Shown: one piece after another, positions 9,111-41,922 of the stretch | How positions within the stretch are numbered: the stretch's first letter is position 1 | Layout of the letters: every line of letters begins with the position of its first letter | NCBI RefSeq assembly: GCF_039675725.1 | Contig: NZ_JBDFQT010000004.1 | Span: 146,881-210,880, forward strand | Direction: 5' to 3' | DNA from: Erwinia sp. Eh17-17 | Lineage (GTDB): Bacteria; Pseudomonadota; Gammaproteobacteria; Enterobacterales; Enterobacteriaceae | Length of the DNA: 64,000 nt | Translations under genes and position numbers: made by a program | Notes under the pieces: generated by a model | The model's database searches: none | Seen by the model: only the letters and a program-made list of their open reading frames with translations | Told to the model about the DNA's origin: nothing

Positions 9111-9139
9111 ATTCTCATACCTGTTAAACCCAGAAATAA

Positions 9140-9658: not shown

Positions 9659-9675
9659 TTAAAACCTCCTCTCCA

Positions 9676-10230: not shown

Positions 10231-10822
10231 AACTTAACCGAAAGTTAACTACCGCCCAAAATGCTCCCGCAACTAAAGGGGCAATGGTACGCTCAGCCAC
10301 CACGGTATAAGTCAGTACATTTTGACCCGGCGTGACCAGCAGCGGCTTACCGCGGCTACCCAGGCGGACATCACGGCCTTCAGGATCCATCAGGTGTAAT
10401 GCCAGGCCAGATACCCCCTGCACTTTAACTAACCGGGGATTATCCATGTCCGACACGGCACGAAAACTTAACGTCACCGAAGGTTGATGAATGGCGGTAA
10501 TCAATGCTCCGGTACGTTCATCACGCTGGCTTAGCGTGGTGCGCAGGCAATCTTGCAGGCGCAGTTTAAAACTGACCGGCGTTCCCTGAGCGCCGGGCTT
10601 GATCAGACGCCCGGTGCCGGTTTCACCTAAGTCGATCTCCTGCGTGGCGCTATCCATTTCCAGACGACAGGCGCTCTCAGTCAGCGCACCATAAACATAA
10701 AGCACACCATTAGCCCCTTCAACATTCCAGTTATCTGTCGCATGTGAGGGTGGCGTAGTGAAAATAAGCGTACATAACAGCAATATTATCTGCAGAAAAC
10801 CGCGGCTGGCATGGCGCCTCAT
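10223..10822 (-). CDS. Fimbrial minor subunit
   Basis: C-terminus ...NFRLSYD. The likely start is MRRHASRGFLQIILLL, a signal peptide. Confidence 0.6.
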   Translation of the reverse strand: MRRHASRGFLQIILLLCTLIFTTPPSHATDNWNVEGANGVLYVYGALTESACRLEMDSATQEIDLGETGTGRLIKPGAQGTPVSFKLRLQDCLRTTLSQRDERTGALITAIHQPSVTLSFRAVSDMDNPRLVKVQGVSGLALHLMDPEGRDVRLGSRGKPLLVTPGQNVLTYTVVAERTIAPLVAGAFWAVVNFRLSYD

Positions 10823-10926
10823 TCCTTTAAGACAGCCCATTAGCTCATCACCCTCGTAATAATATTTATCCATTTATATTACCTTTTCGATCGTCAGCAT
10901 GAACGCGGCAACAGGTCACTTTCCGT

Positions 10927-11694
10927 TCAGGACTTTTCAGGAATAACCTTACAGGTGCTTCCCTCACAGTGGAAACTCAACTGTGGGTAACCGCCATAAT
11001 CATTAATATAAGTCAGAACAGGTGTATTTCCGACGACAGGGGCACTGACACTCAGCTCCGACTCCCCTTTAGGCGGCACCATAAAGGGTACAAAGTCTTT
11101 CGGACCTCTGGTTTTGACTTTATTACTGGCATCCACAATGGTGACATAATAGGGAGTCGGATTATTGACGATGAATTTATTGCCCTTTTTGCTCAACGTC
11201 AGCTGCTCCTGCCACGGAGATTGATTACTTTTAGGCATAATCGATGCGGGACGATAAAATAACTTAATCCTCGTCTGAAGGGCAATCTGCAACGTATTTG
11301 ATTTATCGCTTCTTGGTGGAATCTCACGTAGATTAAAGTAAAATATTGTCTCACGGTCCTGGGGCAAACCCGCAACAGCCGGCAATGCCTGGATTTTCAC
11401 CTGACCGGGTTTTCCCGGTTCAACACGCTGCACGGGAGGTAACACAATGAGCGGGCTTTTAATTTTATTCCCTTCTTCATCTTCAAGCCACCCCTGAGCA
11501 AGATAGGGCAACTGTTTATTCTGGTTGCTAATTCTCAAACTAACCGACTTCTGGCTGCCATCGAATATAACGCGAGTACGGTCAAGGGCAATGGCAGCAT
11601 GGCCTTGTTGCACAGCGACCATGACGAACAATGCAGAATAAACTGTTTTTTTCAGAGCGCTAAGCATGATATCGATTACTCCATAAACCATCAT
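10927..11694 (-). CDS. Periplasmic fimbrial chaperone (PapD/FimC family)
   Basis: Signal peptide followed by ...AIALDRTRVIFDGSQKSVSLRISNQ..., the conserved chaperone N-domain. About 250 aa. Confidence 0.85.
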   Translation of the reverse strand: MMVYGVIDIMLSALKKTVYSALFVMVAVQQGHAAIALDRTRVIFDGSQKSVSLRISNQNKQLPYLAQGWLEDEEGNKIKSPLIVLPPVQRVEPGKPGQVKIQALPAVAGLPQDRETIFYFNLREIPPRSDKSNTLQIALQTRIKLFYRPASIMPKSNQSPWQEQLTLSKKGNKFIVNNPTPYYVTIVDASNKVKTRGPKDFVPFMVPPKGESELSVSAPVVGNTPVLTYINDYGGYPQLSFHCEGSTCKVIPEKS

Positions 11695-11798
11695 AATGTT
11701 TTTATACTTTCCCAGTAAAATTGATAATAAATATTTTTATCGCGTTCATACATCCTCAGCCCGAAGCTGGGGAATAAAATCTCTTAACTATTTGATCA

Positions 11799-14339: not shown

Positions 14340-14399
14340 AATAACCAGCCTGTAATATCCCTATAAATTACACCATGCCGATCATAGCCTTATCAGCAC

Positions 14400-14948
14400 T
14401 CAATAATAATCCATTTTAAAACGTATTATTGAATAGAATCTCCCAGACTTTAACTTCTTAGAGTTGGAGACTAATTTTATCCTAAAATTAAGATCCTTAT
14501 TCCCTTCAATAATATCTTCAGCAGGCATAGCCACACCTGGCAATGCTTTTTTGTTAGTGCTATCGATTATTTCAAGCGCGATACCCTTCGCATCACCTTT
14601 GACCGAAAAAAACCTGCCATCTGCATCCGTATCGCCATCAAATGTCACTTGAAAGCTATGCCAGTCAGGTCGATGTGGATCAACATTAGCCAACTCACAA
14701 TTTATTAACTTAATACTAAAAGGGTATTCCATTCCATGGTTGTTAAGCAGAATGCTACTCGCCGGAACTGTCTTCATATCGATAGACTGGGAACGACTGC
14801 CTGTAGCAATAGCACAGGCGGTGTTAATAATAGACCCGTGCATGCTCACATGCCCCCAACCTTGCGTCGATTTAGCAGCCTGTGACTGGAAGGGTGTCAG
14901 TACCAGTAAAATGTATAGCATGCACACATTGAATATAAACTTCCTCAT
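14400..14948 (-). CDS. Fimbrial subunit (PapH-like position)
   Basis: Signal peptide MRKFIFNVCMLYILLVLTPFQSQA and the pilin C-terminal motif ...FKMDYY. Confidence 0.65.
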   Translation of the reverse strand: MRKFIFNVCMLYILLVLTPFQSQAAKSTQGWGHVSMHGSIINTACAIATGSRSQSIDMKTVPASSILLNNHGMEYPFSIKLINCELANVDPHRPDWHSFQVTFDGDTDADGRFFSVKGDAKGIALEIIDSTNKKALPGVAMPAEDIIEGNKDLNFRIKLVSNSKKLKSGRFYSIIRFKMDYY

Positions 14949-15033
14949 TGGCGCCTTCCCTATGCCAACATTTTTATTTAAATGGCATGCGATATAATGA
15001 CATGCCATTTAAATGTCAGACCAGGATAACTAG

Positions 15034-15573
15034 TTACTGGTAGGCGAGAGTAAAGTCTGCAACAGACTGGAAATCGCCAGGCTTGATATCCGCATCATTG
15101 CCTTTCAGGTAAGCAGAGAAGCTTAAGGTATTGTCACCATTTTGCAGCTGCTGCGCTTTAGATGGCTGCCCTAAAGTGATGTTCTGACCAGAACCATCAG
15201 TAATCGCAATACCTGCACCCTTCGCGGTACCCGTAATACCCAGCAAACCATCTTTCGCTGAAGATTCCATACCGGTAAAGGTCAGGGTAACATTGTTATT
15301 TTTACCCGGATCAACGGAAACCAGATCGCAGTTTTCCAGCTTAATGGTGAACGGACGAGGTGTGGACTGACCACCATCTTTCAGCGCAACGTTAGACACT
15401 GGGCCCAGGTCTACGGTCTGAGCAACTGAATCAGGTTTAATTGAGCAAGGCGCATCAATGATAGAACCTTTAAATGTTACAGTACCATGCCCTTGATCTA
15501 CTACAGCTGCCTGAGCCAGTGAAACAGAGCCGAAAGCCATAACTGCAGCAAGCATGAATTTATTCAATTTCAT
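15034..15573 (-). CDS. Major fimbrial subunit (FimA/PapA-like)
   Basis: MKLNKFMLAAVMAFGSVSLAQA signal peptide, conserved Cys pair and the ...FTLAYQ terminus. It is the first gene of the operon. Confidence 0.85.
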   Translation of the reverse strand: MKLNKFMLAAVMAFGSVSLAQAAVVDQGHGTVTFKGSIIDAPCSIKPDSVAQTVDLGPVSNVALKDGGQSTPRPFTIKLENCDLVSVDPGKNNNVTLTFTGMESSAKDGLLGITGTAKGAGIAITDGSGQNITLGQPSKAQQLQNGDNTLSFSAYLKGNDADIKPGDFQSVADFTLAYQ

Positions 15574-16560
15574 ATAATGTTCCTATCCTTAGTATAGAAA
15601 AATCAACATCCAAGATTTAACTTCCGTTAGTGCCATCAGTAAGTGAAAACAGATGACCACGCTAAACCCTTTAGCGTATTACAAAAAGTCAGTATCAGAC
15701 TGGCAATACCCATCGCTTTTTGTCCCCACAATTATTACCAGGTTCAGGGAACAATTAAAGTCAAAATTGATGAAATCAGAAAAACAATATAAAAAACCCA
15801 GTATCAAGGCCAATTTTTAATTTTTCGATCTATAAAATCGCAGGACAACAACAACTCAGAATTAAATATCGCAATACACAACCTGTAAACACATTGATCT
15901 AAAATCATTACTCTGGATGAATTTTTATTCCAACTCACCTCGCGCACGATGGTGTAACCGTCAGCTTTTCAGGCCTCTTTTTCCTGTGACCATTTACTGC
16001 TATCAATAATGATGCAGACCGTGCAGAGCCCGCCTCTTCCGGGGGTTATAAAACTATTAGCCGGTTTTTTATACTTTTTCATCTGTGCGTTGCATTAGCT
16101 TAATAAGTAAAACTCAGCCGTACCGTCACCCTCTGCTACGCGTGCAATAAAAAGTAGAATAAATGCTATATTTAGCAAAAAAAATAAAATAACTTACAAA
16201 TACCTTACTTCTTTGGGGCTATAAATGGTCTATTTTGTATTAAATAGAAATATAATGTTTATTTTTGTAATCTACAGACTTTCATTTTATATATAAAATA
16301 TCCTGACAAATCCGATCAGACACACTGGCCATTGCCCTGATTGCCGGATCGATTACACTCCTCGCCGCTCTCATCTCGCTACCGAGCGCCGCATCATTTG
16401 CATGCTTCTCTAACCGCAAGAATTATAAGGTTAATTTATTTAGTCATCCGTGCCATCCGTATCCAGCTGAAGATTTAGCCTTTCGGTTTCAAGAAAATTC
16501 CTAACAGGTTTTATTTTTTCCGATACACTGCAGCATTGATCGGCTCAATGTCGCGTACAC
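15574..16560. promoter_or_regulatory. ~1 kb AT-rich ORF-free region between the fimbrial operon and the divergent diguanylate cyclase
   Basis: No ORF of 60 aa or more on either strand. Very AT-rich, as in H-NS/Lrp-type fimbrial switch regions. Contains two GATC sites 69 bp apart at 15827 and 15896. Confidence 0.5.
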
Positions 16561-21400: not shown

Positions 21401-21450
21401 TATGGTTGCGGGCGGACCGAAACAGCAGGTCCGTCCCTACTGTACGATGC

Positions 21451-21487
21451 AAAAAAGGGCGACCATTTTAATGGCCGCCCTTTTTTT
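21451..21487. terminator. Bidirectional terminator between pitA and uspB
   Basis: aaaaaa gggcgaccat ttta atggccgccc ttttttt. Confidence 0.7.
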
Positions 21488-21818
21488 AATGCCAGATGGC
21501 TAAACCAATCAGGCTAATCACCACCAGCCCGCACAGGGCGCTGGTTAAAACAAACTGGCCTCGCAGCCGCTGACAGCGGCGAATAAACTCATCGTCATGA
21601 TGGTCGAGATAGCGCTGATACCAGATGTAGCCAATCAGCCGGACCTGCTTACCCGGCTGCCCGTGAGACGTAAAAAAACCCCCGCCATCCACGTACTGAT
21701 ACAGCAGCGGATCGCAGCCACGCAGCACCACTAACAGTGCCCGTAGCGAAGAGAAGTAGCGCGCCATATTCACTACACAAACGACACAAAGAGCCCAGAA
21801 AAGCGCAACGGTGCTGAT
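21486..21818 (-). CDS. uspB: Universal stress protein B
   Basis: The 111-aa product [55 protein letters not shown]... matches E. coli UspB. The track ORF is longer, but only this segment is conserved. Confidence 0.9.
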
Positions 21819-22595: not shown

Positions 22596-22745
22596 ACGTA
22601 GGGGTCGACCTTTTTTTCCGGTCGACCCGTGTTTTCTGGTCGACCTTGTTTTCCGGTCGACCCTTATTTTCCGGTCGACCCTTATTTTCCGGTCGACCCT
22701 TGTTTTCCGGTCGACCCGCGTTTTCCGGTCGACCCGTGTTCGCTG
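22596..22745. repeat. Tandem array of 8 x 17/18-bp units with the palindromic core GGTCGACC
   Basis: GGTCGACC recurs at 22603, 22620, 22638, 22655, 22673, 22691, 22709 and 22727. The unit is TTTTCCGGTCGACCCNTG and the array is preceded by cgtaggggtcgacc. It lies between convergent uspA and rsmJ. Confidence 0.85.
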
Positions 22746-26710: not shown

Positions 26711-27553
26711 ATGCTCAGTTATCGCCACAGCTTCCATGCCGGCAACCACGCCGACGTTCTCAAACATACCGTGCAGAGCCTGATTATCAGCGCGTTAAAT
26801 GAGAAGGAAAAACCCTATCTTTACCTCGATACCCACGCGGGTGCCGGGCGTTATCTGTTAAGCGGTGAGCATGCGGAGCGTACCGGAGAGTACCTGGAAG
26901 GTATTGCGCGCATCTGGCAGCAGGATGACCTGCCGGAAGAGCTGGCCGCGTATATCAGCGTGGTGAAGAACTACAATCCCGGCGGCAAACTGCGCTACTA
27001 CCCTGGCTCGCCGCTGATCGCCCGTCATCTGCTGCGCGAGCACGACCAGCTACAGCTGACCGAGCTGCACTCCAGCGACTTCCCGATGCTGCGCAGCGAA
27101 TTCCAGAAAGATGACCGTGCGCGTCTCGCCCGTGCCGACGGCTATCAGCAGCTGAAGTCCAAACTGCCGCCGCCGTCGCGCCGGGGTCTGATCCTCATCG
27201 ACCCGCCGTATGAGATGAAAAGTGATTATCAGGCCGTGGTGCAGGGGATCCAGGAAGGCTACAAGCGCTTCGGTACCGGTGTGTTTGCGCTGTGGTATCC
27301 GGTAGTGCTGCGCCAGCAGATCAAGCGTATGTTCAACGAACTGCAGGCGACCGGTATTCGCCGCATTCTGCAGATCGAGCTGGGCGTGCGCCCGGACAGT
27401 GATCGCTTTGGCATGACCGCATCGGGCATGATCGTGATTAACCCGCCGTGGAAGCTGGAGCAGCAGATGAACAACGTGCTGCCGTGGCTGGAAAAAGTGC
27501 TGGTGCCTTCAGGTACGGGTCACCACAAAGTCAGCTGGATCGTGCCGGAATAA
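26711..27553 (+). CDS. rlmJ: 23S rRNA (adenine2030-N6)-methyltransferase RlmJ
   Basis: MLSYRHSFHAGNHADVLKHTVQSLII... is near-identical to E. coli RlmJ (YhiR). Confidence 0.95.
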   Translation: MLSYRHSFHAGNHADVLKHTVQSLIISALNEKEKPYLYLDTHAGAGRYLLSGEHAERTGEYLEGIARIWQQDDLPEELAAYISVVKNYNPGGKLRYYPGSPLIARHLLREHDQLQLTELHSSDFPMLRSEFQKDDRARLARADGYQQLKSKLPPPSRRGLILIDPPYEMKSDYQAVVQGIQEGYKRFGTGVFALWYPVVLRQQIKRMFNELQATGIRRILQIELGVRPDSDRFGMTASGMIVINPPWKLEQQMNNVLPWLEKVLVPSGTGHHKVSWIVPE

Positions 27554-27744
27554 TCTGCGGCACGGGGCGACCGAAAAAGAAGGTCTACATCACTGCTGGT
27601 GGAAATCTGCGGCACGGGGCGACCGGAAAAAAAGGTCTACATCACTGCTGGTGGAAATCTGCGGCACGGGGCGACCGGAAAAAATGGTCTGCATCACTGC
27701 TGGTGGAAATCTGCGGCACGGGGCGACCGGAAAAAATGGTCGCC
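27553..27744. repeat. 3.5 x 52-bp tandem repeat ending in a perfect 9-bp-stem hairpin
   Basis: The unit atctgcggcacggggcgaccgaaaaagaaggtctacatcactgctggtggaa begins at 27553, 27605 and 27657, with a partial copy at 27709. The last copy ends in ggggcgacc-ggaaaaaat-ggtcgcccc at 27718..27744. Confidence 0.85.
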
Positions 27745-27756
27745 CCCTACGATTTA

Positions 27757-28368
27757 TTCCCAATCCGATCGCAAAATCCCCATCCGGTCGCGTAATCCCC
27801 ATCCAACCGCGTAATCCCCATCCAAACGCGTAATCCCCAATCCGACCGCGTAATTCCCCATCCGACCGCAAAATCCCCATCCGACCGCGTAATCCCCAAT
27901 CCGACCGCGTAATTCCCCATCCGACCGCGTAATCCCCCATCCAACCGCGTAATCCCCCATCCGGTCGCGTAATCCCCAATCCGACCGCAAAATCCCCATC
28001 CGACCGCAAAATCCCTATCCGACCGCGTAATCCCCCATCCAACCGCGTAATCCCCATCCAAACGCGTAATCCCCCATCCGGTCGCGTAATCCCCATCCAA
28101 ACGCGTAATCCCCAATCCGACCGCAAAATCCCCATCCGACCGCGTAATTCACCATCCGACCGCATAATCCCCCATCCGGTCGCGTAATCCCCCATCCAAA
28201 CGCGTAATCCCCAATCCGATCGCAAAATCCCCATCCGACCGCGTAATTCCCCATCCGGTCGCGTAATTCCCCATCCGGTCGCGTAATCCCCCATCCGGTC
28301 GCGTAATCCTCAATCCGACCGCAAAATCCCCATCCGACCGCGTAATCCCCCCAATCGCGTAATTCCTC
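27757..28368. repeat. About 30 tandem copies of a 19-21-bp unit (CGCGTAATCCCCATCCGAC-like) with point variants
   Basis: Contiguous units (atccgaccgcgtaatcccc, atccaaccgcgtaatcccc, atccaaacgcgtaatcccc, aatccgaccgcaaaatcccc ...) with no spacers. Several ORFs open in multiple frames are artefacts of the repeat. Confidence 0.85.
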
Positions 28369-28370
28369 CG

Positions 28371-28400
28371 CGATCGCGTAGGGGCTGACCTTCTTTTTCG
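28371..28400. repeat. Terminal hairpin element of the repeat array
   Basis: cgtaggggctgacc-ttcttttt-cggtcagccc. It is related to cgtaggggtcgacc at 22596 and to the reverse complement of ggtcgccccctacg at 27736. Confidence 0.7.
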
Positions 28401-28418
28401 GTCAGCCCGCTATCACAG

Positions 28419-29333
28419 TCAGAGCGGAAACACCGCGAAATCATGCGCCATCTCGGTGTGTTCAAACACCGCCCGGCACTCCGCCAGCAGCCGTTCACTA
28501 TCACCCCGCAGGTAACGCGTGCTGAGATGCGTAACAATCAGCCGTTTTGCGCCGCTTTCCAGCGCCACTTTTGCCGCCTGCGCCGTGGTGGAATGCCCGC
28601 GGCTGTTGGCCTTCTCTTCCATCGCCACTTCCAGCGTGGCCTCATGCACCATCAGGTCTACCCCCGCTGCCATTTCGTTCGCCGCCGCCGTCGGTGCGGT
28701 ATCGCCAAAAATCGCCAGGCTGCGCCCTTTGATTTTATCGCCCACGTAATCCCAGCCGTTAAGGGTCCGGCCATCCGGCAGCGTCACGCGCTTACCGTGC
28801 TTCAGGTCATAGAAGTAAGGCCCGGCAGGAATGCCGTCGGCGGCCAGCTTCGTCGCATCCAGCGCGCCCGGCTTATCATGCTCATCAATGCGGTAGCCGT
28901 AACACTCCACCGGATGGGTCATCGGGTACGCCGTTACGCGGAAATGCTCATCGTTGCACACCTCACCCGCGCTAATTTCGATAATCTCCAGCGGGAAGGT
29001 CAGCCACGAGCCGCTCAGGCTGAGGGTGGTTTCGACAAAGGTTTTCAGCCCCGCAGGGCCGTATATCGTCATGGGGTCGGTAGAGCCGTTCATCGACCGG
29101 CTGGTGAGCAGACCCGGCAGGCCAAAAATATGATCGCCGTGCAGATGGGTAATAAAGATCTTCTCGATCTTCCCCGGCTTGATCGGGGTGCGCAGGATCT
29201 GGTGCTGCGTGGCCTCCCCGCAGTCAAACAGCCAGGTGGCATTGCGCACCCCCTGCAAATCCAGCGCTATGCTGGTGACGTTGCGCTCGCGACCGGGCGT
29301 TCCGGCACCGGTACCTAAAAACTGCAATTGCAT
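28419..29333 (-). CDS. rbn: Ribonuclease BN / RNase Z (tRNA 3'-end processing metallo-beta-lactamase)
   Basis: [26 protein letters not shown]...[17 protein letters not shown]... aligns along its length with E. coli RNase BN (ElaC) and has the HxHxDH motif. The longer track ORF from 29372 overlaps rtcR. Confidence 0.85.
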
Positions 29334-29352: not shown

Positions 29353-30936
29353 CTATTGTTGCGGTAATTCACCCGACTTCACGCTGTCCCAGTCTAACGC
29401 AAAACGGGCCAGATACTTGCGCAGCCGGTCGGCGTCATTCGGCTGTTTCTTCTGCTGGCGTGAAACGGCAAACAGCGTGCGGCCGGCCTCCGACAGCGAT
29501 GCGGATTCGCGACACACCTTCAGCACCGTCTCCAGCTGGCTGTGGTCAAACAGATCCAGCGTCTCCGGTAACACCAGCGTGGGTTCAAGCTGCCAGCTGG
29601 CGCGCAGGCGGGCGATCTCTTCTTCCACCTGCGCCAGTTCGATACGGCCGTTATCCGCCAGCGTGGCCATGCGGGTGACGGAGGCGCTCAGCTCGCGAAA
29701 GTTACCGCGCCACAGGGCAGCAGGCGCGCAGGCAAATTGCAGGTAACGCTGACGCGCCTGCGGCTCAAAACGCACCTGCGACTGGGCATCGCTGGCAAAG
29801 CGCAGCAGTTCAAACTCCAGATTAGGTTCAATATCTTCACGCCGTTCCGCCAGCCCCGGCAGCGTAAAGCTCCACATATTAATACGCGCATAGAGATCCT
29901 CACGGAAGCGCCCTTCCGCCACCCACTGGCGCATATCGCGATGGGTCCCGGCGATCAGCTGAAAATCACTGCTGACCTCTTTATCCGCGCCGAACGGCAG
30001 GAAGCGCTTCTCTTCTATCGCTTTCAGCAGCATCGCCTGTTCATCCAGCCCCAGCTCGGCAATCTCATCAAGAAATAACATGCCGCCGTCGGCCTCACGC
30101 AGCAGCCCGTTGCGCGGCTGCAACGCGCCGGTGAAGGCCCCTTTCACATGGCCAAACAGCGTGGACATGGCATTATCACCGCGCAGCGTGGCGCAGTTGA
30201 CCGCCACCAGCCTGCCGCTGACCCGATGACGTGACTGGCGCAGCTGATAAATTCGCTCGGCCAGAAACGATTTGCCCGCCCCGGTCGGGCCGCTCAGCAG
30301 CAGTGGCGCGTCCGAGCGCAGCGCCACCCGTTCAATCTGATCGATCAGGTTATTAAAGGTGGCGTTACGCGTGGAAATACCGCCCTTCAGCAGCGATACC
30401 GACTCCTGACGTTCGCGCATAAAGCGGCTGGTCAATGTGGCATAACGGCTCAGGTCGAGGTCAATCAGCGTACAGACGCCCTCGGTTTTGGCACTCTCCT
30501 GTTCACGCGGGGCGGGGGCCGTTTGCAGCAGTCTGGCGGGCAGATAGCGTGCCTCGGTCAGCAGGAACCAGCAGATCTGCACCACATGCGTTCCGGTGGT
30601 GATATGCACCAGATACTCTTCATTCTCGGTATCAAAAGGATAGTGGCGGGCAAAATCGAGCAGGACGGTGTACACCTCCTCAAAATCCCACGGGTCATTC
30701 AGCGTAATCGGGTTCAGCCGCACCTCGGTTTCCGGCGAGACCAGCGCGATATCCTCCGACATTTGCTGTGCCATGGTCTGACGGTCGGGCTGATGCAGCA
30801 GGTCCAGGCGGTCAACCGGCAGATCCGGCTGCATGCACAGCCCCAGCGTCGGTCGCCATTTGTTCCAGCGGTTTTCACGCTTGCCCCGCTTATCCAGCGT
30901 GGTTCCCAGCATGCCTATCACCACTCTGCGCTTCAT
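29353..30936 (-). CDS. rtcR: Sigma-54-dependent transcriptional activator RtcR (N-terminal CARF domain, AAA+ and HTH)
   Basis: 527 aa with full-length similarity to E. coli RtcR (...[13 protein letters not shown]...[28 protein letters not shown]...[17 protein letters not shown]...GAFTGA...). Walker A and the GAFTGA sigma-54 contact motif are present. Confidence 0.9.
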
Positions 30937-30957
30937 GCCTTATCCTTTTATCGCAAT

Positions 30958-30977
30958 ATTTATCCCACAGGATAAAT
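30958..30977. promoter_or_regulatory. Perfect 8-bp inverted repeat ATTTATCC-caca-GGATAAAT in the rtcR upstream region
   Basis: It lies about 20 bp upstream of the rtcR start. A candidate operator. Confidence 0.35.
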
Positions 30978-31071
30978 TCCTCCCTCAACCCGCAGCAAGC
31001 CCTTTCTTTCGCGTAAAAATAAAAATGATATTTATCAATCAACTAAAAATAATTTCACCTTTTTTTTCACC

Positions 31072-31089
31072 CTGGCACGCTTCTGGCAA
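31072..31089 (+). promoter_or_regulatory. Sigma-54 (-24/-12) promoter for the SPFH-rtcB-rlaP operon
   Basis: TGGCACGcttcTGGCAA: GG at 31074-75 and GC at 31086-87, 12 bp apart as in the TGGCACG-N4-TTGCW consensus. It is oriented toward rtcB, and the divergent activator is RtcR. Confidence 0.7.
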
Positions 31090-31197
31090 TAGTTACCCCG
31101 TCGATATGCTGAATCATGCCAGGGTTATGAACCCAGCCGGCGCACCGGGAACGGATGACCGTTTTCCCGCAGGCGTTCCGTCAGCACCAGACATTTT

Positions 31198-31243
31198 GCG
31201 AAGGGCACAGGGCCAGAACGGGTTCGACTCCCGGCTTCGCACC
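31198..31243 (+). ncRNA. tRNA-like minihelix (acceptor stem plus T-arm mimic) in the operon leader; candidate structured ncRNA element
   Basis: 5' gcgaag (31198-203) pairs with cttcgc (31235-240) followed by ACC. Between them is a cggg-TTCGACT-cccg T-arm with the canonical GGTTCGAnTCC T-loop. There is no D or anticodon arm. Confidence 0.45.
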
Positions 31244-31433
31244 TCTCTCCCAGGAGCCTTGAATAGCAGTACCCCGGCTGTGCAGTCAGCAGCCCACCCG
31301 GAGCACCGGCTAACGCGTCGGGTCTGGGGCATCATCTCCGCGCCGCCGCCGTACCGGGTGCCGCTCAGATGCTCCCCCAGGCTTCACGCCGCAGCCCGCG
31401 CTCCGCGGTGCCCAAATTAATTAAGGAGATAAG

Positions 31434-32567
31434 ATGTTTAAGAAATTCACCATACGGAAAGGTCAAATCGCGTTGCTGTCAAAGAACGATGAATACCAAC
31501 AAATTTTGCCAGCCGGGGAGTATCGTTTCCGCGACTGGCGCCTTCAGCTCCAGGTCGCGACCTTCGGGCTGAATGAGCCGCTGGATAGTCCCCTGGCCGA
31601 CTACCTGCAACAGTATCACCCGCAGTGGGTAAGCGAGTTCTGTCAGACGGTGGCGGTGCCTGAAACCTGCGTCGGCCTGCACTATAAAAATGACCAGCTG
31701 GTGGAGATCCTGCCGCCGGGTACGCGCCGCCTGTGGTGGCTGAACGGCAGCGCGCAGCGCGTCGACCTGCTGTCCACCGATACGGTAGAGATCCCGGCGA
31801 CCATCGTCGCCAGCCTGATGCAGCCACAGCTGCGCCAGCACGTGGTGGCCGGTAACGCCGGAGTACTGCTGGTGCAGATACCGGCCTGGCATGTGGGCAT
31901 CCTGAAGGTTGACGGCATGCCGCAGGCGCTGCTGCCGCCCGGAGCCAGCGGCTACTGGCGCTTCAACCATCAGGTTGATGTTGAGGTGGTGGACACCCGC
32001 GTGCAGGCGCTGGAAGTGAGCGGCCAGGAGATTCTGACGCGTGATAAAGTCAGCTTACGCATCAATCTGGCGGCCAACTGGCGCTACAGCGATGTGATGA
32101 GCGCCTATGCGCAGCTGACCAAACCGCTGGAATACCTCTACCGTGAGCTGCAGTTTGCGCTGCGGGAAGCGGTCGGGACGCGCAGCCTGGACGAACTGCT
32201 GGAAAATAAGCAGGCGATCGATGAGCTGGTAAGCACGCAGATCCGCCAGAACGTGGCGGCTTACGGGATGGAAGTGGCCTCACTGGGGGTGAAAGACATC
32301 ATCCTGCCGGGAGAGATGAAGACCATCCTTACCCGCCTGGTGGAGGCGGAGAAATCGGCCCAGGCAAACGTGATCCGTCGGCGCGAAGAGACGGCCGCCA
32401 CCCGATCGCTGCTGAATACGGCCAAAGTGATGGAAAACAACCCGGTCGCACTGCGCCTGAAGGAGCTGGAAACGCTGGAAAGAGTGGCAGAGCGCATCGA
32501 TAAAATCTCCGTATTCGGCGGCCTGGACCAGGTGCTGAACGGACTGGTACAGATAAAAGGGAACTGA
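31434..32567 (+). CDS. SPFH/band-7 (slipin-like) domain protein without an obvious N-terminal TM helix
   Basis: 377 aa with an SPFH-like core and a C-terminal coiled-coil (EAEKSAQANVIRRREETAATRSLLNTAKV...). Its stop lies 3 bp before the rtcB start. Confidence 0.7.
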   Translation: MFKKFTIRKGQIALLSKNDEYQQILPAGEYRFRDWRLQLQVATFGLNEPLDSPLADYLQQYHPQWVSEFCQTVAVPETCVGLHYKNDQLVEILPPGTRRLWWLNGSAQRVDLLSTDTVEIPATIVASLMQPQLRQHVVAGNAGVLLVQIPAWHVGILKVDGMPQALLPPGASGYWRFNHQVDVEVVDTRVQALEVSGQEILTRDKVSLRINLAANWRYSDVMSAYAQLTKPLEYLYRELQFALREAVGTRSLDELLENKQAIDELVSTQIRQNVAAYGMEVASLGVKDIILPGEMKTILTRLVEAEKSAQANVIRRREETAATRSLLNTAKVMENNPVALRLKELETLERVAERIDKISVFGGLDQVLNGLVQIKGN

Positions 32568-32569
32568 CA

Positions 32570-33787
<1,218 letters not shown>

Positions 33788-33799
33788 GGAGCAAACCTG

Positions 33800-34591
33800 A
33801 TGAATACAGAAGAAGCCGTCAGCCCGGCGATGCGCGAGCGGGTGCTGGCAGCATTAAAGGCGATTGAAGTCCGCGAAAACGTGCGCGTGCTGTACGCCTG
33901 CGAGTCCGGCAGCCGGGGCTGGGGATTCGCTTCACCCGACAGCGACTACGATGTGCGCTTTATCTACGTGCATCAGCCTGAGTGGTATCTGCGCGTGGAG
34001 CCGCCGCGTGATGTAATCGAACGGCCGATCGACAGCGAGCTGGACGTCTGCGGCTGGGAGCTGCGCAAAACGCTGGGGCTGCTGAAGGCCGCCAACCCGA
34101 CGCTGATGGAGTGGCTGGACTCGCCGGTGGTTTATCGCCAGCACCCGGACGCGGTGCAGGCTTTACGCGGGCTGGTGCCGGATTTCTTCAGCGATCTGCG
34201 GGCGCGCTACCACTATCTGTCGATGGCGAAGAAGAACTTTCGCGGCTATTTACAGGGCGAGTCGGTGCGGCTGAAAAAGTACTTCTACGTGCTGCGCCCG
34301 CTGCTGGCCGTGCAGTGGATCGAAGCCGGGAAAGGCATACCGCCAATGCGTTTTGACCGGCTAATGGCGGGAACGGTAAGCGACCCGCTGCTGCGGGCAG
34401 AGATCGACGCCCTGCTGGAAAATAAACGCCAGGCGGGTGAAGCGGAGTACGGCCCGCGCCGTGAGCGGATCCATGCCTTCATTGGGCAGCAGCTGGCACG
34501 GCAGGAGCGTCCGCCGCTGGATGACACACCGCGCCGCGATGCCAACGCCCTGAACCAGCTGCTGATGCAGACGGTACTTTCCCCGGTATAA
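33800..34591 (+). CDS. Pol-beta-superfamily nucleotidyltransferase of the RtcB-associated (RlaP-like) type
   Basis: The minimal nucleotidyltransferase motif GSRGWGFASPDSDYDV (GS...DxD) near the N-terminus. It is the third gene of the operon. The family assignment is from memory of RtcB-linked nucleotidyltransferases. Confidence 0.65.
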   Translation: MNTEEAVSPAMRERVLAALKAIEVRENVRVLYACESGSRGWGFASPDSDYDVRFIYVHQPEWYLRVEPPRDVIERPIDSELDVCGWELRKTLGLLKAANPTLMEWLDSPVVYRQHPDAVQALRGLVPDFFSDLRARYHYLSMAKKNFRGYLQGESVRLKKYFYVLRPLLAVQWIEAGKGIPPMRFDRLMAGTVSDPLLRAEIDALLENKRQAGEAEYGPRRERIHAFIGQQLARQERPPLDDTPRRDANALNQLLMQTVLSPV

Positions 34592-36169: not shown

Positions 36170-36181
36170 TGCCGTCAGAAA

Positions 36182-37324
36182 CTAGTAATAGTTAATGGTA
36201 AAGGTCGCCGTGGCATTCGCTTTGCCCGGCGTGACCGGGCCGCTGGTTTTGATATAGCGGGCGACCAGCGCAACAGCCCTTGTTCTGATGTCAGCGCTGC
36301 CTAAGAGCGTGTTTTTTGCTATCGCAAAATTAACCAGAGGTGGGGACACCTGCCCCGTGGCTCCATAGGCAAGTTGAATACCCACGCCGGAAGCGGTGCC
36401 GCTTCCCGATTGCAGATTAAAAATACCCTTTACTGAATCTGTTACCGGGGTATTCGGCTGAATCGATACGCTGATTGAATTAGGTGTCATCGCACCGATA
36501 GCGCTATTGCCATTGTCGGAATAATAACTGTTGCGTCCATCGGTCAGTTTGCCGTAAAAGCGCGGGCAGTTGGTCATTATGATTGACGCATCCTTCCAGG
36601 GCGTGCCATCTCCCGCATTTTTAAACTGCCCGATATCGTAGCTGCCCATATTCACCGTGACGTCCGGCGTGGTACAGGTGGCTGAGACGATATTCAGCGA
36701 GCCAACAAAGCTGGTTTCCACGGCTTTAATTGGCGTAATGTTTGAGGCTTCAAAGAAAGAGCCGAGCGTGGGCAACGAAGCCCCGTCTAAAACACCCGGC
36801 TGGATATCCCCGATTTTGATTAAAACCATATCGAAGTCGTAGCCGTTATTAGCCGTAAATGTGTAAGCTGGAGCCGCATTGGTGCCACCCCATGAATTCT
36901 GACTAAAAGGGACTATGGGCACCGATGCATCGGTACCACGGCGAAAGAGTACGCCAATACCCGGCACATTAGTCTCCATAATCTTGCCCGCATACGCGGA
37001 GACACCGCCATCAGAACTCGATACCGGATAAGGACGGTGCGTGAATCGATAGCTCGATGAAGGCTGATAGATCCCGCTATTATTGCTACAGTGAAAACTA
37101 ATCGGGCCAGAAGGCCGATAGTATTGCTCATGGATCACCGTACCGTTTGGCACATCAGGACCAACGGTGATATTGCTTCCCTGAATCGGCATCTGCATGG
37201 TAATCAGTGCGGAGCCCGGGCTAAATTCACAGGTCAACGCGCTGGCTCCCGTCGCGGCCATCAGCAGTGACAGCAGCAGCGTGCTGCGCATCACCCCTTT
37301 TTTAATCAATTGCATATTATTCAT
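36182..37324 (-). CDS. Fimbrial tip adhesin (large two-domain pilin, about 380 aa)
   Basis: Signal peptide MNNMQLIKKGVMRSTLLLSLLMAATGASA and the pilin C-terminus ...ATFTINYY. It is the last gene of a chaperone-usher operon. Confidence 0.65.
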   Translation of the reverse strand: MNNMQLIKKGVMRSTLLLSLLMAATGASALTCEFSPGSALITMQMPIQGSNITVGPDVPNGTVIHEQYYRPSGPISFHCSNNSGIYQPSSSYRFTHRPYPVSSSDGGVSAYAGKIMETNVPGIGVLFRRGTDASVPIVPFSQNSWGGTNAAPAYTFTANNGYDFDMVLIKIGDIQPGVLDGASLPTLGSFFEASNITPIKAVETSFVGSLNIVSATCTTPDVTVNMGSYDIGQFKNAGDGTPWKDASIIMTNCPRFYGKLTDGRNSYYSDNGNSAIGAMTPNSISVSIQPNTPVTDSVKGIFNLQSGSGTASGVGIQLAYGATGQVSPPLVNFAIAKNTLLGSADIRTRAVALVARYIKTSGPVTPGKANATATFTINYY

Positions 37325-37328
37325 AGCC

Positions 37329-39944
37329 TTATCCTGCTGAAGATGGTGTCGGCAGCGACTGCGCGGCCAGCTGCGTATCTGCGGAAGCGGCAGGGAAGGC
37401 ACAGACCCCGTTAAACTGCTGCACTACCGCGTTTTCACTGCCTTTCGCCTGCGGCATCAGGTGGTAGCCGATGCGGCAGCTTTCTGCCACGCCCTCTCCC
37501 CACTTCACCCGCAGCTCGCCCTGCGGTTCGCTGATGCGCGCGTAAATCTGCCCGCCCTGGCCAACCGCGCCGACGCTGTTGCCCGCGCTGTCCAGTACCT
37601 CGGCACCAAACGGTACTGGCTGGCCCTCCAGCGTGGCGCTAATCAGGATCGGGCTGCCGCTGTGCGTCTGGTACTTCAGCTTCACCACCGCCCCGGAATA
37701 AGGGGCGACGCGCTGGGTGGTATTGTCCAGCTCGACATCGGCGGCGGTCCCTTTCGGGTCGATGCTGACCTCGTTCATCTCATACGGATTGAGGTACGGC
37801 ACCACCGCATAGCCGAACGGGTCGATCGTCACGCCCGGATAGTTAGAGACGTGCGCCCCGCTCGCCCCTTTCGCCTCGACCAGCGCGAAGGTATCCGCCA
37901 CGTAAGGCGAGGCGGTGACGCCGCCGCCGTGGGCGACCAGCGTGCCGCTGGCACCAAGCGATTCACTGTGGTAGTTGCGCCCGGTGCTGTAAGCCGCATT
38001 GAGCGAGCTGTAAGGCGCGCGATACTGACCGTTGACCGAGCCGCTGCTGCCGCTGTTGTTATGCAGCCCGGAGATACCGTAGCTGTACTGATTTTCGCTG
38101 CCCGCCGCGCCTGAAATCGTCGCCTGCTGGCCGCTGTTGCCGTTGCTGTCGCGGTTGAAGTCCAGTCTTGCCTGCGGCGTATAGGCGGTATCGGCACGCC
38201 CCAGCGGGAAGCTGAAGGTCAGCTGGTAGTTGTTCTGATTCACGCCGTAGCCGGACTGGGTGCGGCTGGCGTTGATGCCGTACGTCAGGCTGCGGTAGCG
38301 GTTGCTGTAACCAAGCTGATACTGCTTGTCGCTGCCGTTTTTATTCCAGTAGTCCTGTACCGAACTGCTGATATAGAACTGGCCCCATGCGCCCGGCAGC
38401 CCCTGTGAAGCGGTCACCGTCAGGCGGTTCTTCGCCCTGACGATGTTGTTTTGATCCATGCCCTGCTGAAGCGCGTCGCGCGCCTGAGCGTGGGTGATGA
38501 AATCCATATAACCGCTGGTCGAGAAACGATAAGCCGCCAGCGCCAGGTTACTGTTGGTTTCACTGATCAGCTTGCTGTAGCTCAGACGATAGCTCTGCCC
38601 GGAGTAGCTCAGGCCATTGTTATTCAGGTGTGCTCGCGCCTGAGTAACGTCAGCGCTGACCGCACCTGCCGGAGTGCCAATAGCCGCGCCGAACTGCAGG
38701 GCGTAGTAGTTCTGGCTGAGTTGCATACCGGTATAGCCGGTGACGGCGTTGGTCAGCCCGCGCTGATAAGTCCCCTGGTACAGCGCGGGCTTATCGTGCA
38801 GATAGTCGCTGCGCAGATTTCCGGCGGTCAGCGAGTAACGGTCACTGCCGGGGCGCAACAGCGCAGCTACCGAAGCATAAGGCACCAGGAAGCGCTGTTC
38901 AGTACCGTCGGCCTCGCGCACCGTGACCGCCAGGTCGCCGCCGTAGCCGCTCGGATAAAGATCATTGATCAGGAATTCGCCCGGCGGCACGGTGGTTTCA
39001 TAGATCACCTGTTCGCCCTGGCGCACGGTAACGCGGGCGTTAGTGCGGGCAAAACCATGAATATCGGGCGCATAGCCGCGCAGCGACTGTGGCAGCATGC
39101 GCTCGTCGCTGGCAATCTGTACGCCGGTAAACGCCAGCGTATCAAACAGCTGTCCCTGGGTGTTCGACTGCCCGGCGAGGAAGCGACCTTTGATCGCCGG
39201 AATATCGCGCTGCACGTAGCTGTTGATTGCATCGTAGTGCTTGCCGCCGTGATCGGTGGCGTTATAGGAGCCGTTATGGCGGAAGTACCACGCGCCAACG
39301 TTCAGCCCGGCGTTCACTCCGGCATACAGCGACTGATACTGATACCCCCGGGCGCTGCTGCTGTAACCGCTGAGGTTATAGCCCAACATGCCGGCGGTGA
39401 CCCCCTTATCCCACAGGGCCGGATTGACGCTGCCGCGCGCGCGCTGCAGCAGGTAGACCTGCGGAATGCTGAGGTTCAGCTGCTGCTCATTACTGTCGAA
39501 TTCAATGCGCGATTCCGGCAGGCGCGCCTGTAAATCCAGGCACGCGTCCTCGCCCGCCAGTGGCTGAAGGAAATCTTTCGGCAGTTTCGCTTCGTTGAAG
39601 TTGATGCCCTGCAACAGGGTAGGGGTGAGACACGGATAAACCGACTTATCTGCACGGGATGTAAAGGTGACCTCTTCGTTACCGATCGGCTCGCCGTTGA
39701 GGCTCACTGATACGCGGTAAGTCCCCGGTGTGGCTGATGCGCCGTTGGCGAAGCGCGACAGATCAACATCACTTTTGTTTTCCAGGTTAAGAAACGACGG
39801 GTCGAACTCAACGTTAGTGGCAATATTCTGTGGCTCTGTAGCAAAGGCCGGGCAGGAGAGCGCAGCGGCAATCAGCACGCAAAGCGTGGAGAGTGTTCCC
39901 TGGCGTGGGGAAACACCATGTGTCGCAACAGAATTCAGTTTCAT
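37329..39944 (-). CDS. Outer-membrane fimbrial usher
   Basis: About 870 aa (start taken at MKLNSVATHG..., signal ...CPAFATEPQN). Usher motifs NVEFDPSFLNLEN and a C-terminal domain. Confidence 0.85.
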   Translation of the reverse strand: MKLNSVATHGVSPRQGTLSTLCVLIAAALSCPAFATEPQNIATNVEFDPSFLNLENKSDVDLSRFANGASATPGTYRVSVSLNGEPIGNEEVTFTSRADKSVYPCLTPTLLQGINFNEAKLPKDFLQPLAGEDACLDLQARLPESRIEFDSNEQQLNLSIPQVYLLQRARGSVNPALWDKGVTAGMLGYNLSGYSSSARGYQYQSLYAGVNAGLNVGAWYFRHNGSYNATDHGGKHYDAINSYVQRDIPAIKGRFLAGQSNTQGQLFDTLAFTGVQIASDERMLPQSLRGYAPDIHGFARTNARVTVRQGEQVIYETTVPPGEFLINDLYPSGYGGDLAVTVREADGTEQRFLVPYASVAALLRPGSDRYSLTAGNLRSDYLHDKPALYQGTYQRGLTNAVTGYTGMQLSQNYYALQFGAAIGTPAGAVSADVTQARAHLNNNGLSYSGQSYRLSYSKLISETNSNLALAAYRFSTSGYMDFITHAQARDALQQGMDQNNIVRAKNRLTVTASQGLPGAWGQFYISSSVQDYWNKNGSDKQYQLGYSNRYRSLTYGINASRTQSGYGVNQNNYQLTFSFPLGRADTAYTPQARLDFNRDSNGNSGQQATISGAAGSENQYSYGISGLHNNSGSSGSVNGQYRAPYSSLNAAYSTGRNYHSESLGASGTLVAHGGGVTASPYVADTFALVEAKGASGAHVSNYPGVTIDPFGYAVVPYLNPYEMNEVSIDPKGTAADVELDNTTQRVAPYSGAVVKLKYQTHSGSPILISATLEGQPVPFGAEVLDSAGNSVGAVGQGGQIYARISEPQGELRVKWGEGVAESCRIGYHLMPQAKGSENAVVQQFNGVCAFPAASADTQLAAQSLPTPSSAG

Positions 39945-39987
39945 CCTGGCTCCGGCCTTTTGGTCATAGTTTTGGGAGAGAGTGCGG

Positions 39988-40683
39988 CTATTTAACGCTG
40001 GCGCTGCCGTTGACGATCGCGCCGTAGTCATTGACCGAACTGACGGCAAGCTGACTGCCCGCTCTGGCACCCGGCAGGGCAAAAGAGAGTGAGCCGTTCG
40101 GCGGAACCATCTGGCCCTCGACTTTTTTGCCACCCAGCGACAGCTCGACCAGGGAGACGTTATAAGGCGTCGGATTAACCGCGGTGACGCCACCGGGGCT
40201 GGCAGTCCAGGTCAGGGCTTTGACGGCATCGTTGGCGTTGCCCGTCAGTCCGGCCGGACGGAAAAAGAGCTTGATACGCGAACGAAAAGCCATCTGCAGC
40301 AGATTGTCAGACTGCAACGTTTTATCTTTGGCCGGAATTTCCAGAACATTAAGGAAGAACACCGACTCTTTATTCGACGGCAGCGGCGCACCGGTATAGC
40401 TCAGGCGCAGGGTCTGACCCTTTTTCGCTTCGATACGGTTAATCGGCGGCGTTAATATAAACGGCACCTGAATTTTTTCCGGTTTCGCCTCAGCGTCGCC
40501 ATTATCTATCCAGCTCTGAACCAACACCGGAGACTTTCCGACATTATCTAATTTTATCGTCACCTCTTTCTGCCCGGCGGGGTATATCACGCGTGTCCCA
40601 CTGATAATGACACCGGCAAAGGATGGCAGACTGAAAAAGGCAGTGAACAGGGAGAGAAGGAAATAAATAAATAAGCGAGGCAT
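39988..40683 (-). CDS. Periplasmic fimbrial chaperone
   Basis: MPRLFIYFLLSLFTAFFSLPSFAGVIISGTRVIYPAGQKEVTIKLDN... matches the PapD-like fold motifs. Confidence 0.85.
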   Translation of the reverse strand: MPRLFIYFLLSLFTAFFSLPSFAGVIISGTRVIYPAGQKEVTIKLDNVGKSPVLVQSWIDNGDAEAKPEKIQVPFILTPPINRIEAKKGQTLRLSYTGAPLPSNKESVFFLNVLEIPAKDKTLQSDNLLQMAFRSRIKLFFRPAGLTGNANDAVKALTWTASPGGVTAVNPTPYNVSLVELSLGGKKVEGQMVPPNGSLSFALPGARAGSQLAVSSVNDYGAIVNGSASVK

Positions 40684-40746
40684 AGCTGTTTCTCAGTAAG
40701 ATAAATAAGGGCAGCTATGACTGCCCTTTTATGATCTGCCAGCAGA

Positions 40747-41283
40747 TTATTTATACTGCAGGCTGTAAACTACACTGCTGACAACGGTACCGGCAGTGGT
40801 TGCCGCCGTTGCAAAGTAGCGTACGTCGTAAGGCAGCGTTGCAGAACCAGTCGAGGTGTCCACATAGGTTGTGTTAGTGATCTGGTCGCCGCTGCCAACG
40901 TTAATCACGCCGCGCGTACCGGATCCATCCAGCAGCTGCAGGTCAACGTTGGTGGCCGTACCGGAGTTGATCAGACGGCCCTGTGCATTCACCGTCGCGC
41001 CATCTTCAAAGAACGCAGAGGCGGTCTGCAGCGTACCGGCACAGTTGGTCAGCGCCATGTTGAAGCGGGTGTTGCCCGCAGTTTTGCTGGCAACATCCAG
41101 CACGTTAGTTCCCAGCGTTGGCAGTACAACCGTCGCGTCCGGACCCTGGCCTTCTACGCTGACGTCACAGGTAGTGGCGGTCAGTTCACCGTTGAAAGTA
41201 ATCGTACCGGTGGACGCAGCCTGTGCCATATTTGCCATACCAAATGCAGTAATAACAGATACCGCCAAAATAACTTTTTTCAT
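40747..41283 (-). CDS. Major fimbrial subunit
   Basis: MKKVILAVSVITAFGMANMAQA signal peptide, pilin Cys pair and the ...YSLQYK terminus. AGGA sits 10 nt upstream of the second ATG. Confidence 0.8.
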   Translation of the reverse strand: MKKVILAVSVITAFGMANMAQAASTGTITFNGELTATTCDVSVEGQGPDATVVLPTLGTNVLDVASKTAGNTRFNMALTNCAGTLQTASAFFEDGATVNAQGRLINSGTATNVDLQLLDGSGTRGVINVGSGDQITNTTYVDTSTGSATLPYDVRYFATAATTAGTVVSSVVYSLQYK

Positions 41284-41922
41284 TACTCTCATTCCTTTTT
41301 ACAACAGGTTAATATGCAGGATTCATTTCCTGTAAATTGATCATTAACGCGTATTCATTCACTAAAGAGAGGTGGATTACCGAAATAATATCCGTGAAAA
41401 AATAACCTCATCCCTGAGGAAAATATGACTACAAAAAAATAATAAAATGCCACTGCACAAATACACTCTCAGGTAATAACAGACTCAACCATCTCATCCC
41501 TGATCCGCTTCTTATTTCCTTTACCGAAGCATTCCTTAATAACTGACGCCATCCCTGACTAAATCCATTCATTGCGTCTGAGCTGCATATTACTCACATC
41601 CTGCCATACCACAATAGGGGTATACCGGCGTAAAAAAAGCACGAAACATGCCTGTTAAATACATTAATTAATAAGTAGTTAAGGCTTTTATTAGCAATAT
41701 CAGGAAGTAATAAGAAAACCACCAACTTAGAGACCGGTACTAAAAAGCCTGTTGCTGATAGTATTTGACGAAAAGGATGAGTCCAGAAGATGAAAAGGAC
41801 TACAGGTATTGCTGAATATTCTTTCCCTTTTCAGGGGCGTTTTTTATCAGGCAGAGAGAGCCACGCGTTTCACGAGGGCAGACAGCCCCCGTTGTTACGT
41901 AGCAAATAGCCGGATGAAGAGG

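Follow-up and report, generated by a model that had tools for sequence, protein, structure and literature searches.

The repeat-filled spacer between rlmJ and rbn

This study concerns a compound tandem repeat that occupies the spacer between the convergent genes rlmJ and rbn in a 64,000-nucleotide stretch of Erwinia sp. Eh17-17 (contig NZ_JBDFQT010000004.1), which is called the window below. The spacer, bounded by the stop codons of rlmJ (27553) and rbn (28419), measures 865 bp and is made up wholly of repeat DNA. Its features and the two genes that enclose it are the following, with positions counted from the first letter of the window.

26711..27553, + strand: rlmJ, 23S rRNA methyltransferase of 280 aa (translation begins MLSYRHSFHAG), the left flank
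27552..27741, + strand: 52-bp tandem array (Tandem Repeats Finder: period 52, 3.7 copies, 97% matches)
27595-27602, 27647-27654 and 27699-27706, + strand: three Chi octamers (GCTGGTGG), one per 52-bp unit
27719..27751, - strand: left full hairpin, with stem 27720-27728, loop 27729-27737, stem 27738-27746 and CTAC tail 27747-27750
27759-28351: 20-bp array as delimited by Tandem Repeats Finder (period 20, 30.2 copies, 83% matches, 2% indels)
27759..28366, + strand: minisatellite of about 31 contiguous 19-20-bp units in 17 variants, parsed at the anchor CGC(G/A)(T/A)AA
28376..28409, + strand: right full hairpin, with GTAG 28378-28381, stem 28382-28390, loop 28391-28399 and stem 28400-28408
28419..29333, - strand: rbn, RNase Z/BN of 304 aa (NCBIfam NF000800, 533 bits), the right flank

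The repeats reach close to both genes, as the rlmJ stop codon lies 1 nt ahead of the first 52-bp unit and 10 nt separate the end of the right hairpin from the rbn stop. Each 52-bp unit is composed of a hairpin resembling a repetitive extragenic palindrome (REP), with its right arm 6 nt short (GGTC|TAC vs GGTCGCCCCCTAC), and 27 nt of flank. The three truncated hairpins were recovered at 27565, 27617 and 27669 when one mismatch to the hairpin pattern was allowed, and the last, partial copy of the unit holds an intact hairpin. The minisatellite has the + strand consensus CGCGTAATCCCC(C)ATCCGAC, and this strand is 44% C and 14% G. Its units abut and are not palindromic. The pattern spanning a unit junction was matched 30 times, compared to 0.00 expected from 100 shuffles. 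The original prediction, made from the letters alone, had described 52-bp units with a partial copy, a hairpin, units of about 20 bp and a terminal hairpin, and Tandem Repeats Finder and the unit parsing bore out every descriptive statement in it. The relation that it had noticed between the right hairpin and the start of the first 52-bp unit was also recovered, at 91% complementarity over 23 nt. With contiguous head-to-tail units in the range of about 10-100 bp (periods 20 and 52), both arrays have the form of a minisatellite, or variable number tandem repeat (VNTR).

Short direct repeats in an intergenic position are also found in CRISPR arrays. In those arrays, the repeats are separated by spacers, whereas the units in the window are contiguous with zero spacers and are non-palindromic. 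A CRISPR was therefore ruled out by the absent spacers, as the original prediction had held. Consistently, no cas domain was detected among the open reading frames (ORFs) of the window that were scanned, and there was no Rfam match to a CRISPR direct repeat.

A GTAG-tagged hairpin family and the origin of the arrays

The hairpins at the two ends of the minisatellite belong to a dispersed family of 33 nt with the form CGTAGGGG-NN-GACC, a T-rich loop of 9 nt and GGTC-NN-CCCG, which can also be written (C)GTAGGG(G)-NN-GACC. Four full copies are present in the window, each behind convergent genes in the pitA/uspB, uspA/rsmJ and rlmJ/rbn spacers.

21408..21443, - strand, pitA-uspB: single hairpin copy (body 21411-21435) with no array attached; reverse complement AGTAGGGACGGACCTGCTGTTTCGGTCCGCCCG
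22596..22740, + strand, uspA-rsmJ: second composite repeat, a GTAG hairpin (body 22602-22628) and then 18 bp x 7.8 at 22603-22740; hairpin at 22596, CGTAGGGGTCGACCTTTTTTTCCGGTCGACCCG
27719, rlmJ-rbn: left hairpin; reverse complement CGTAGGGGGCGACCATTTTTTCCGGTCGCCCCG
28376, rlmJ-rbn: right hairpin; CGTAGGGGCTGACCTTCTTTTTCGGTCAGCCCG

The stem of the left hairpin (GGGGCGACC/GGTCGCCCC) has 9 bp, is 100% complementary and encloses a loop of 9 nt; that of the right hairpin is GGGCTGACC/GGTCAGCCC. All four copies have in common the GTAG foot, the GACC/GGTC inner stem and the T-rich loop. The middles of their stems differ by compensatory changes (CT/AG, TC/GA, GC/GC and CG/CG), giving the variants GGCTGACC/GGTCAGCC, GGTCGACC/GGTCGACC, GGGCGACC/GGTCGCCC and GACGGACC/GGTCCGCC. 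The pattern of the hairpin body had eight matches in the window, compared to 0.24 expected. The heptamer GTAGGGG/CCCCTAC occurs six times in the 64 kb, of which three are at the hairpins, and the fourth hairpin (21408-21443) has GTAGGGA instead. The same hairpin body was found in the uspA-rsmJ spacer of other Erwinia.

Altogether, the window holds four full hairpins, three truncated ones and a pair of related perfect palindromes. The palindromes, at 50666-50697 and 60156-60192, have stems of 10 bp and 12 bp by the hairpin scan, the second reaching 14 bp by eye. They share the GGG..GACC/GGTC..CCC body but their GCAG/CTGC feet are paired at either side, and they could be additional relatives of these hairpins. 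In the pitA-uspB region (21408-21490), the hairpin adjoins a classical bidirectional intrinsic terminator (AAAAAAGGGCGACC...GGCCGCCCTTTTTTT).

At rlmJ-rbn, the left and right hairpins form a 33-nt inverted repeat that is 79% complementary, with 625 nt between its arms. Both GTAG tails point into the 20-bp array, an arrangement that is a tail-to-tail dimer in the terms of Di Nocera et al. (PMC3733652). According to the same study, GTAG REPs have stems of 5-13 bp, loops of 2-20 nt and an unpaired GTAG, and prefer spacers between convergent or co-directional genes. The window hairpins are likewise GC-rich stem-loops with 9-bp stems and an unpaired GTAG foot, are extragenic in convergent spacers and fall into sub-families by compensatory stem changes. 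The tail-to-tail pair, with three truncated copies placed head-to-tail and with linker and copy number varying by strain, has the organization of a REP cluster. We therefore modify the earlier statement that the repeat is not a classical REP. It stands for the 20-bp units, which are not palindromic, but not for the bounding hairpins, which are GTAG-tagged, REP-like and the source of both arrays. On their sequence features, we describe the hairpins as REP-like, with REP membership incomplete.

The closest known systems are the GTAG REPs and the bacterial interspersed mosaic elements (BIMEs) built from them, such as BIME-2 and the atypical BIMEs of E. coli. These have GC-rich stem-loops of about 33 nt in which one foot is an unpaired GTAG, as well as compensatory variants of the stem, sites behind convergent genes and inverted pairs. 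They are also reiterated in tandem with flanking DNA, and their linkers and copy number vary by strain; for BIME-2, both were reported to differ between strains (PMC3333891). There are differences as well. Compared to the GTAG-3 REP of enterobacteria, the window hairpins have a different stem and a T-rich loop of 9 nt, and GTAG-3 REPs were confined to the Escherichia-Klebsiella cluster and were not found in the cluster that holds Erwinia (Di Nocera et al., PMC3733652). In a BIME, the usual unit is REP-linker-REP, whereas here a non-palindromic tail plus flank of 19-20 bp was amplified about 31 times, and 625 bp separate the two full REPs instead of the usual 20-100 bp.

The sequences from which the arrays could have grown are still visible. 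By the composition of its unit, the 52-bp array is a defective REP reiterated head-to-tail. For the minisatellite, a contig of a sister lineage (L041) has a spacer that looks ancestral, ...GGTTAACCTCCACCCGATCGCGTAG-hairpin-hairpin-CTAC, while the right end of the spacer in the window reads TTCCTCCGCGATCGCGTAG-hairpin. The flank 5' of the right hairpin (TCCTCCGCGATCGCGTAG) is conserved in L041. The unit CCCCCATCCGATCGCGTAA agrees at 16 of 19 positions with the L041 flank CCTCCACCCGATCGCGTAG, a stretch that takes in the GTAG tail and the bases directly 5' of it. We infer from this match that the minisatellite is the GTAG tail and its 5' flank amplified about 30 times. Within the units, the GTAG tail has decayed to GTAA or AAAA. 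The L041 sequence already contains a proto-repeat, GTTAA...GCGTAG, about 20 nt apart. Microhomology of this kind seeds slippage.

A smaller repeat of the same type lies 5 kb away, in the uspA-rsmJ spacer. Its 18-bp unit comprises the hairpin loop and the palindromic right arm (GGTCGACC). In Erwinia relatives with identical UspA, the uspA-rsmJ hairpin is present and the 18-bp array is absent.

Taking these observations together, we assign a probability of roughly 70% to the reading that the rlmJ-rbn spacer is a GTAG-tagged REP-like (BIME-like) hairpin cluster that has undergone two local tandem amplifications. The relatives show what the ancestral spacer was like, 36-110 bp long with one or two hairpins, which would have served the 3' ends of the convergent genes. 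The hairpin on the rlmJ side would then have been reiterated with 27 nt of flank as the 52-bp units, and a stretch of about 19 nt, made up of the GTAG tail of the rbn-side hairpin and the bases directly 5' of it, would have been reiterated about 30 times. The outcome would be a non-palindromic minisatellite of 19-20-bp units between two REPs with facing tails. Growth and shrinkage were likely driven by replication slippage and by unequal RecA/RecBCD recombination between units, which may have been favoured by the hairpin-forming arms and by the short GTAA/GTAG proto-repeat in the ancestral flank. The units would then have diverged by point mutation. The Chi octamers of the 52-bp units make RecBCD-dependent recombination at the spacer plausible. 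Chi is five-fold enriched in the window as a whole (16 copies vs 3.07 expected), and 10 of the 13 copies outside the 52-bp units are on the - strand.

REP-associated tyrosine transposases (RAYTs) are normally encoded in single copy and can lie anywhere in a genome. No Y1 transposase of this type was found among the 42 window ORFs scanned. Cutting and rejoining by a RAYT was considered as the way in which the 52-bp unit acquired its GGTC|TAC junction and was rejected, since the 5' side does not read C|T, so that the published cleavage rule (PMC3333891) does not fit. A wider alternative is that the whole repeat is a mobile non-autonomous element, either a MITE (a miniature transposable element with inverted repeats) or a REPIN, with its 33-nt inverted hairpin ends moved by a RAYT or another transposase and its interior an expanded repeat. 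The complementary terminal elements would fit this, and GTAG tails are a RAYT recognition feature (PMC3333891). However, a mobile element should have copies elsewhere, and no second copy was found in the window, 185,579 species genomes, a subset of Joint Genome Institute (JGI) metagenomes, plasmids, E. coli genomes or phages. The outer borders show no visible target-site duplication or other direct repeat, and at this site the right hairpin is ancestral, as is its flank. Moreover, the tails point inward here, whereas most REPIN-like dimers are head-to-head (PMC3733652). We thus consider mobility of the whole element very unlikely and retain local amplification of a REP-like cluster.

Strain variation and distribution

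To compare the minisatellite between assemblies, the arrays were written as letter strings with one letter per unit variant, using contigs that encode identical RlmJ or RNase Z.

Window: ABCDEFGEFHIEGJHDIDEGKLMNGOOIPGQR, 618 bp, about 31 units
L001 (JGI): ASDTUMVEFHIEGJHDVIPGQR, 424 bp, about 21 units
L002 (European Nucleotide Archive, assembled with SPAdes): ABCDWGEFHIEGGIEGQR, 361 bp, about 17 units

The end units are kept in all three arrays and the block EFHIEG is common to them, with its extension JHD in the window and L001. Between their ends, the arrays differ by insertions and deletions of blocks, and S, T, U and V are point variants private to L001. The 52-bp unit is present 3.7 times in both the window and L001 and 1.7 times in L002, and the 18-bp array at uspA-rsmJ has two fewer units in L022 than in the window. 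The copy-number variation that had been anticipated, and the comparison across strains proposed to check it, were thus borne out by three assemblies with identical RlmJ. This gain and loss of units is typical minisatellite behaviour. The repeat resembles intergenic VNTRs, such as the loci used in multiple-locus VNTR analysis and the mycobacterial interspersed repetitive units, in having head-to-tail units of tens of bp in a spacer, conserved end units, gain and loss of internal blocks and different copy numbers among strains. In contrast to them, the units are unusually heterogeneous (83% matches, 17 variants), their source can be traced to the flank of a REP tail, and two different arrays occupy one spacer.

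Such length differences could also arise if repeats were expanded or collapsed during assembly. Contigs built from short reads at k=31, including Logan contigs, end at the hairpins or within the 52-bp repeats, and one metagenome gives two inconsistent paths through the array. Against an artefact, exact repeats inside the region reach 53 bp at most and none of its 60-mers recurs, so that the window array can be resolved with ordinary reads or long k-mers. The three independent assemblies also share unit types, terminal units and the internal block EFHIEG(JHD). An assembly artefact is hardly credible as an explanation of the array. The array is a real, strain-variable, non-coding compound repeat, and not a CRISPR, an island junction or a coding region. 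It belongs to known kinds, namely GTAG REP clusters and bacterial VNTRs, and is ordinary bacterial repeat DNA rather than a new system.

Several points weigh against our reading of the spacer as an amplified REP-like cluster. The hairpin family was counted within 64 kb of the genome, which leaves its REP membership incomplete. The two array paths in JGI metagenome 3300048922 are incompatible, so individual copy numbers need caution and some of the differences may be assembly effects. The presence of 17 variants in an array that is absent at about 8-12% RNase Z divergence implies either an unusually fast turnover or an older array that was lost elsewhere. Lastly, the array RNA may have a role, as discussed below.

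The gene order around the spacer is prlC, CPBP protease, rlmJ, rbn, rtcR, Band7/SPFH protein, rtcB, RlaP and gor. The prlC gene has 79.8% identity to that of E. coli, and Pfam PF04378 was matched by the identical RlmJ protein on other contigs. An RNA-repair cassette at 29353-34591 consists of rtcR and, divergently, Band7/SPFH, rtcB and RlaP, without rtcA; Rfam gave no match, such as a Y RNA, anywhere in the window. The original prediction placed the repeat exactly at the junction of this cassette as an inserted island. This was not upheld. rbn converges on rlmJ across spacers of 36-110 bp in E. sorbitola (L012, L013), in an E. tasmaniensis-type contig (L017) and in three sister lineages (L015; L029/L030/L039; L040-L043), and relatives retain one or two hairpins at the site. 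The rlmJ-rbn adjacency is thus ancestral in Erwinia. What varies is the interval from rbn to gor, on the side away from rlmJ, which carries DUF3289/DUF943 genes in E. sorbitola, hsdMSR in E. tasmaniensis and rtcR-Band7-rtcB-RlaP in the window. In L029, whose RNase Z is 91% identical, the same rtcR-Band7 cassette stands beside rbn with a spacer of 36 bp and no array. Therefore, the array is an expansion of an ancestral convergent-gene spacer, and an island junction or insertion scar is excluded. The same lineage rejects the array as an upstream activating sequence for RtcR, since it has rtcR and lacks the array.

The closest named RNase Z homologues are those of Erwinia sorbitola (88%), E. pyrifoliae (85%), E. 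tasmaniensis (84%) and E. amylovora (84%). Identity declines further across Pantoea, and the matches at 100% and 99% are from metagenome assemblies only. Because these identities track the taxonomy of Erwiniaceae and the adjacency to rlmJ is conserved, rbn is considered a core Erwinia gene and not island cargo.

The array at rlmJ-rbn was absent in lineages with 87-92% identical RNase Z and in the named Erwinia examined. A search of 185,579 GTDB species genomes with a two-unit pattern returned only three single matches (Planctomycetota and Bosea), where about two were estimated by chance. In the JGI metagenome subset, there were only single matches, on two metagenome contigs and again in keeping with the chance estimate, in a scan that was not exhaustive, as sample 3300048923 holds the array and was not matched. 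With the entire spacer as a BLAST query, plasmids, E. coli genomes and phages gave no match. From this distribution, the array appears to be young and lineage-specific. Spacers of the ancestral type were unstable as well: the poly-C tract at rlmJ-rbn is 8 vs 10 in two E. sorbitola genomes (L012 and L013 compared), and in the lineage with 87% identity, an extra hairpin in one contig accounts for spacers of 110 vs 75 bp (L040 and L041 compared).

Elsewhere in the window there are two chaperone-usher fimbrial clusters, at 8300-15600 and 36180-41300, with ushers at 11799-14339 and 37329-40193. The first is located in a low-GC stretch (41-49%, compared to a background of about 59%).

Coding capacity, RNA and the significance of the repeat

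An ORF of 234 aa on the - strand (27590-28294) spans the array, and it has been considered whether it encodes a repeat protein. Each frame of the array's - strand is interrupted by only one stop codon, and the JGI gene caller placed a 156-aa gene wholly inside the 20-bp array of L001 (4880-5350). This openness is a mechanical result of the repeat, because the unit GTCGGATGGGGGATTACGCG has no stop in any of the three - strand frames. The unit length of 19-20 bp is not a multiple of 3, and the ORF cannot be conserved because the length differences of 194 and 257 bp between strains shift the frame. Pfam gave no match for the 234-aa ORF, and none is on record for the L001 call. We give almost no credence to a repeat protein. 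The earlier warning of artefactual ORFs was justified by both predictions, and the L001 call is likely a false gene that has entered protein databases.

A role at the RNA level was considered as well. The - strand of the 608-nt array contains 60 GGA motifs and the + strand none, while YC dinucleotides number 35 per 100 nt on the + strand and 3.8 on the - strand. Accordingly, the array might be a functional 3'-UTR RNA, in which the G-rich transcript from the rbn side, with two GGA per unit, titrates CsrA/RsmA, or the transcript from the rlmJ side is a dedicated Rho-loading insulator. There is no T-run after either bounding hairpin, which makes read-through into the array plausible, and REPs of E. 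coli do work as 3'-UTR regulators (bioRxiv 10.64898/2026.03.23.713779). The multi-GGA sponge RNAs CsrB/RsmB are similar in their dense GGA on one strand. They differ from the array in having a promoter and terminator, an Rfam match, conservation among relatives and hairpins that present GGA in the loop. In the array, the promoter/terminator scan found no sigma-70-like promoter and no terminator-like site. Rfam, with the CsrB/RsmB families included, had no match at the gathering threshold in the window and nothing meaningful at E<=10 in the spacer. RNA folds of both strands had z-scores of -5.6 and -2.8 with no interpretable modular structure and no defined GGA-loop hairpins. The GGA count follows mechanically from one repeated G-rich unit, the unit order and copy number vary freely, and all sister lineages and named Erwinia examined lack the array at rlmJ-rbn. 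A functional 3'-UTR RNA is thus unlikely. One form of it is a newborn sponge, in which the rtcR-rbn transcript would run through the rbn-proximal hairpin, which has no U-tract, into a G-rich 3' tail of about 600 nt with about 60 GGA, sequestering CsrA/RsmA or another RNA-binding protein that recognizes G motifs, with copy number tuning the effect by strain. This is a long shot; if true, the array RNA would be a lineage-specific protein sponge caught at its birth from a REP tail.

At the DNA level, the 19-20-bp units might be binding sites for a protein, in an array of the iteron, centromere or nucleoid-protein type. Plasmid iteron lengths include the 19-20-bp range, and the cores CGCGTAAT and ATCC are conserved across the units. 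On the other hand, the array lies among chromosomal genes for housekeeping and RNA repair, with no rep, par or integrase gene next to it. Relatives lack the site, no plasmid or phage matched, the spacing of the units shifts between 19 and 20 bp and the copy number is unconstrained. Iterons and a partition centromere were rejected in the absence of a cognate rep or par gene, and we regard a protein-binding array as highly improbable.

Judged by its sequence, then, nothing points to the array as a gene or a dedicated RNA. We assume that it is probably neutral repeat DNA without a sequence-specific function, because it is absent in every related lineage examined and the order and number of its units are unconstrained. 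The hairpins are a different matter. By analogy with E. coli, in which REPs are partly Rho-dependent terminators and mRNA stabilisers (bioRxiv 10.64898/2026.03.23.713779), the hairpins abutting each stop codon are likely 3'-end terminator or stabiliser elements for rlmJ and rbn. It is also plausible that the C-rich, G-poor and rut-like + strand RNA loads Rho and thereby limits read-through from rlmJ into the antisense of rbn.

The value of the finding is mainly practical and illustrative, and a new mechanism would be opened only if the array RNA proves functional. Assemblies at k=31 break at the array and gene callers yield a false protein of 156-234 aa, which is a technical hazard. The rlmJ-rbn locus and its smaller sibling at uspA-rsmJ would serve as VNTR typing markers for this Erwinia. 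The spacer is a clean natural example of the birth of a minisatellite, in which a proto-repeat at a REP tail, still visible in sister lineages, has become about 31 units in one lineage. It also documents a GTAG-tagged REP-like family in Erwinia, outside the cluster to which Di Nocera et al. confined the GTAG-3 REPs.

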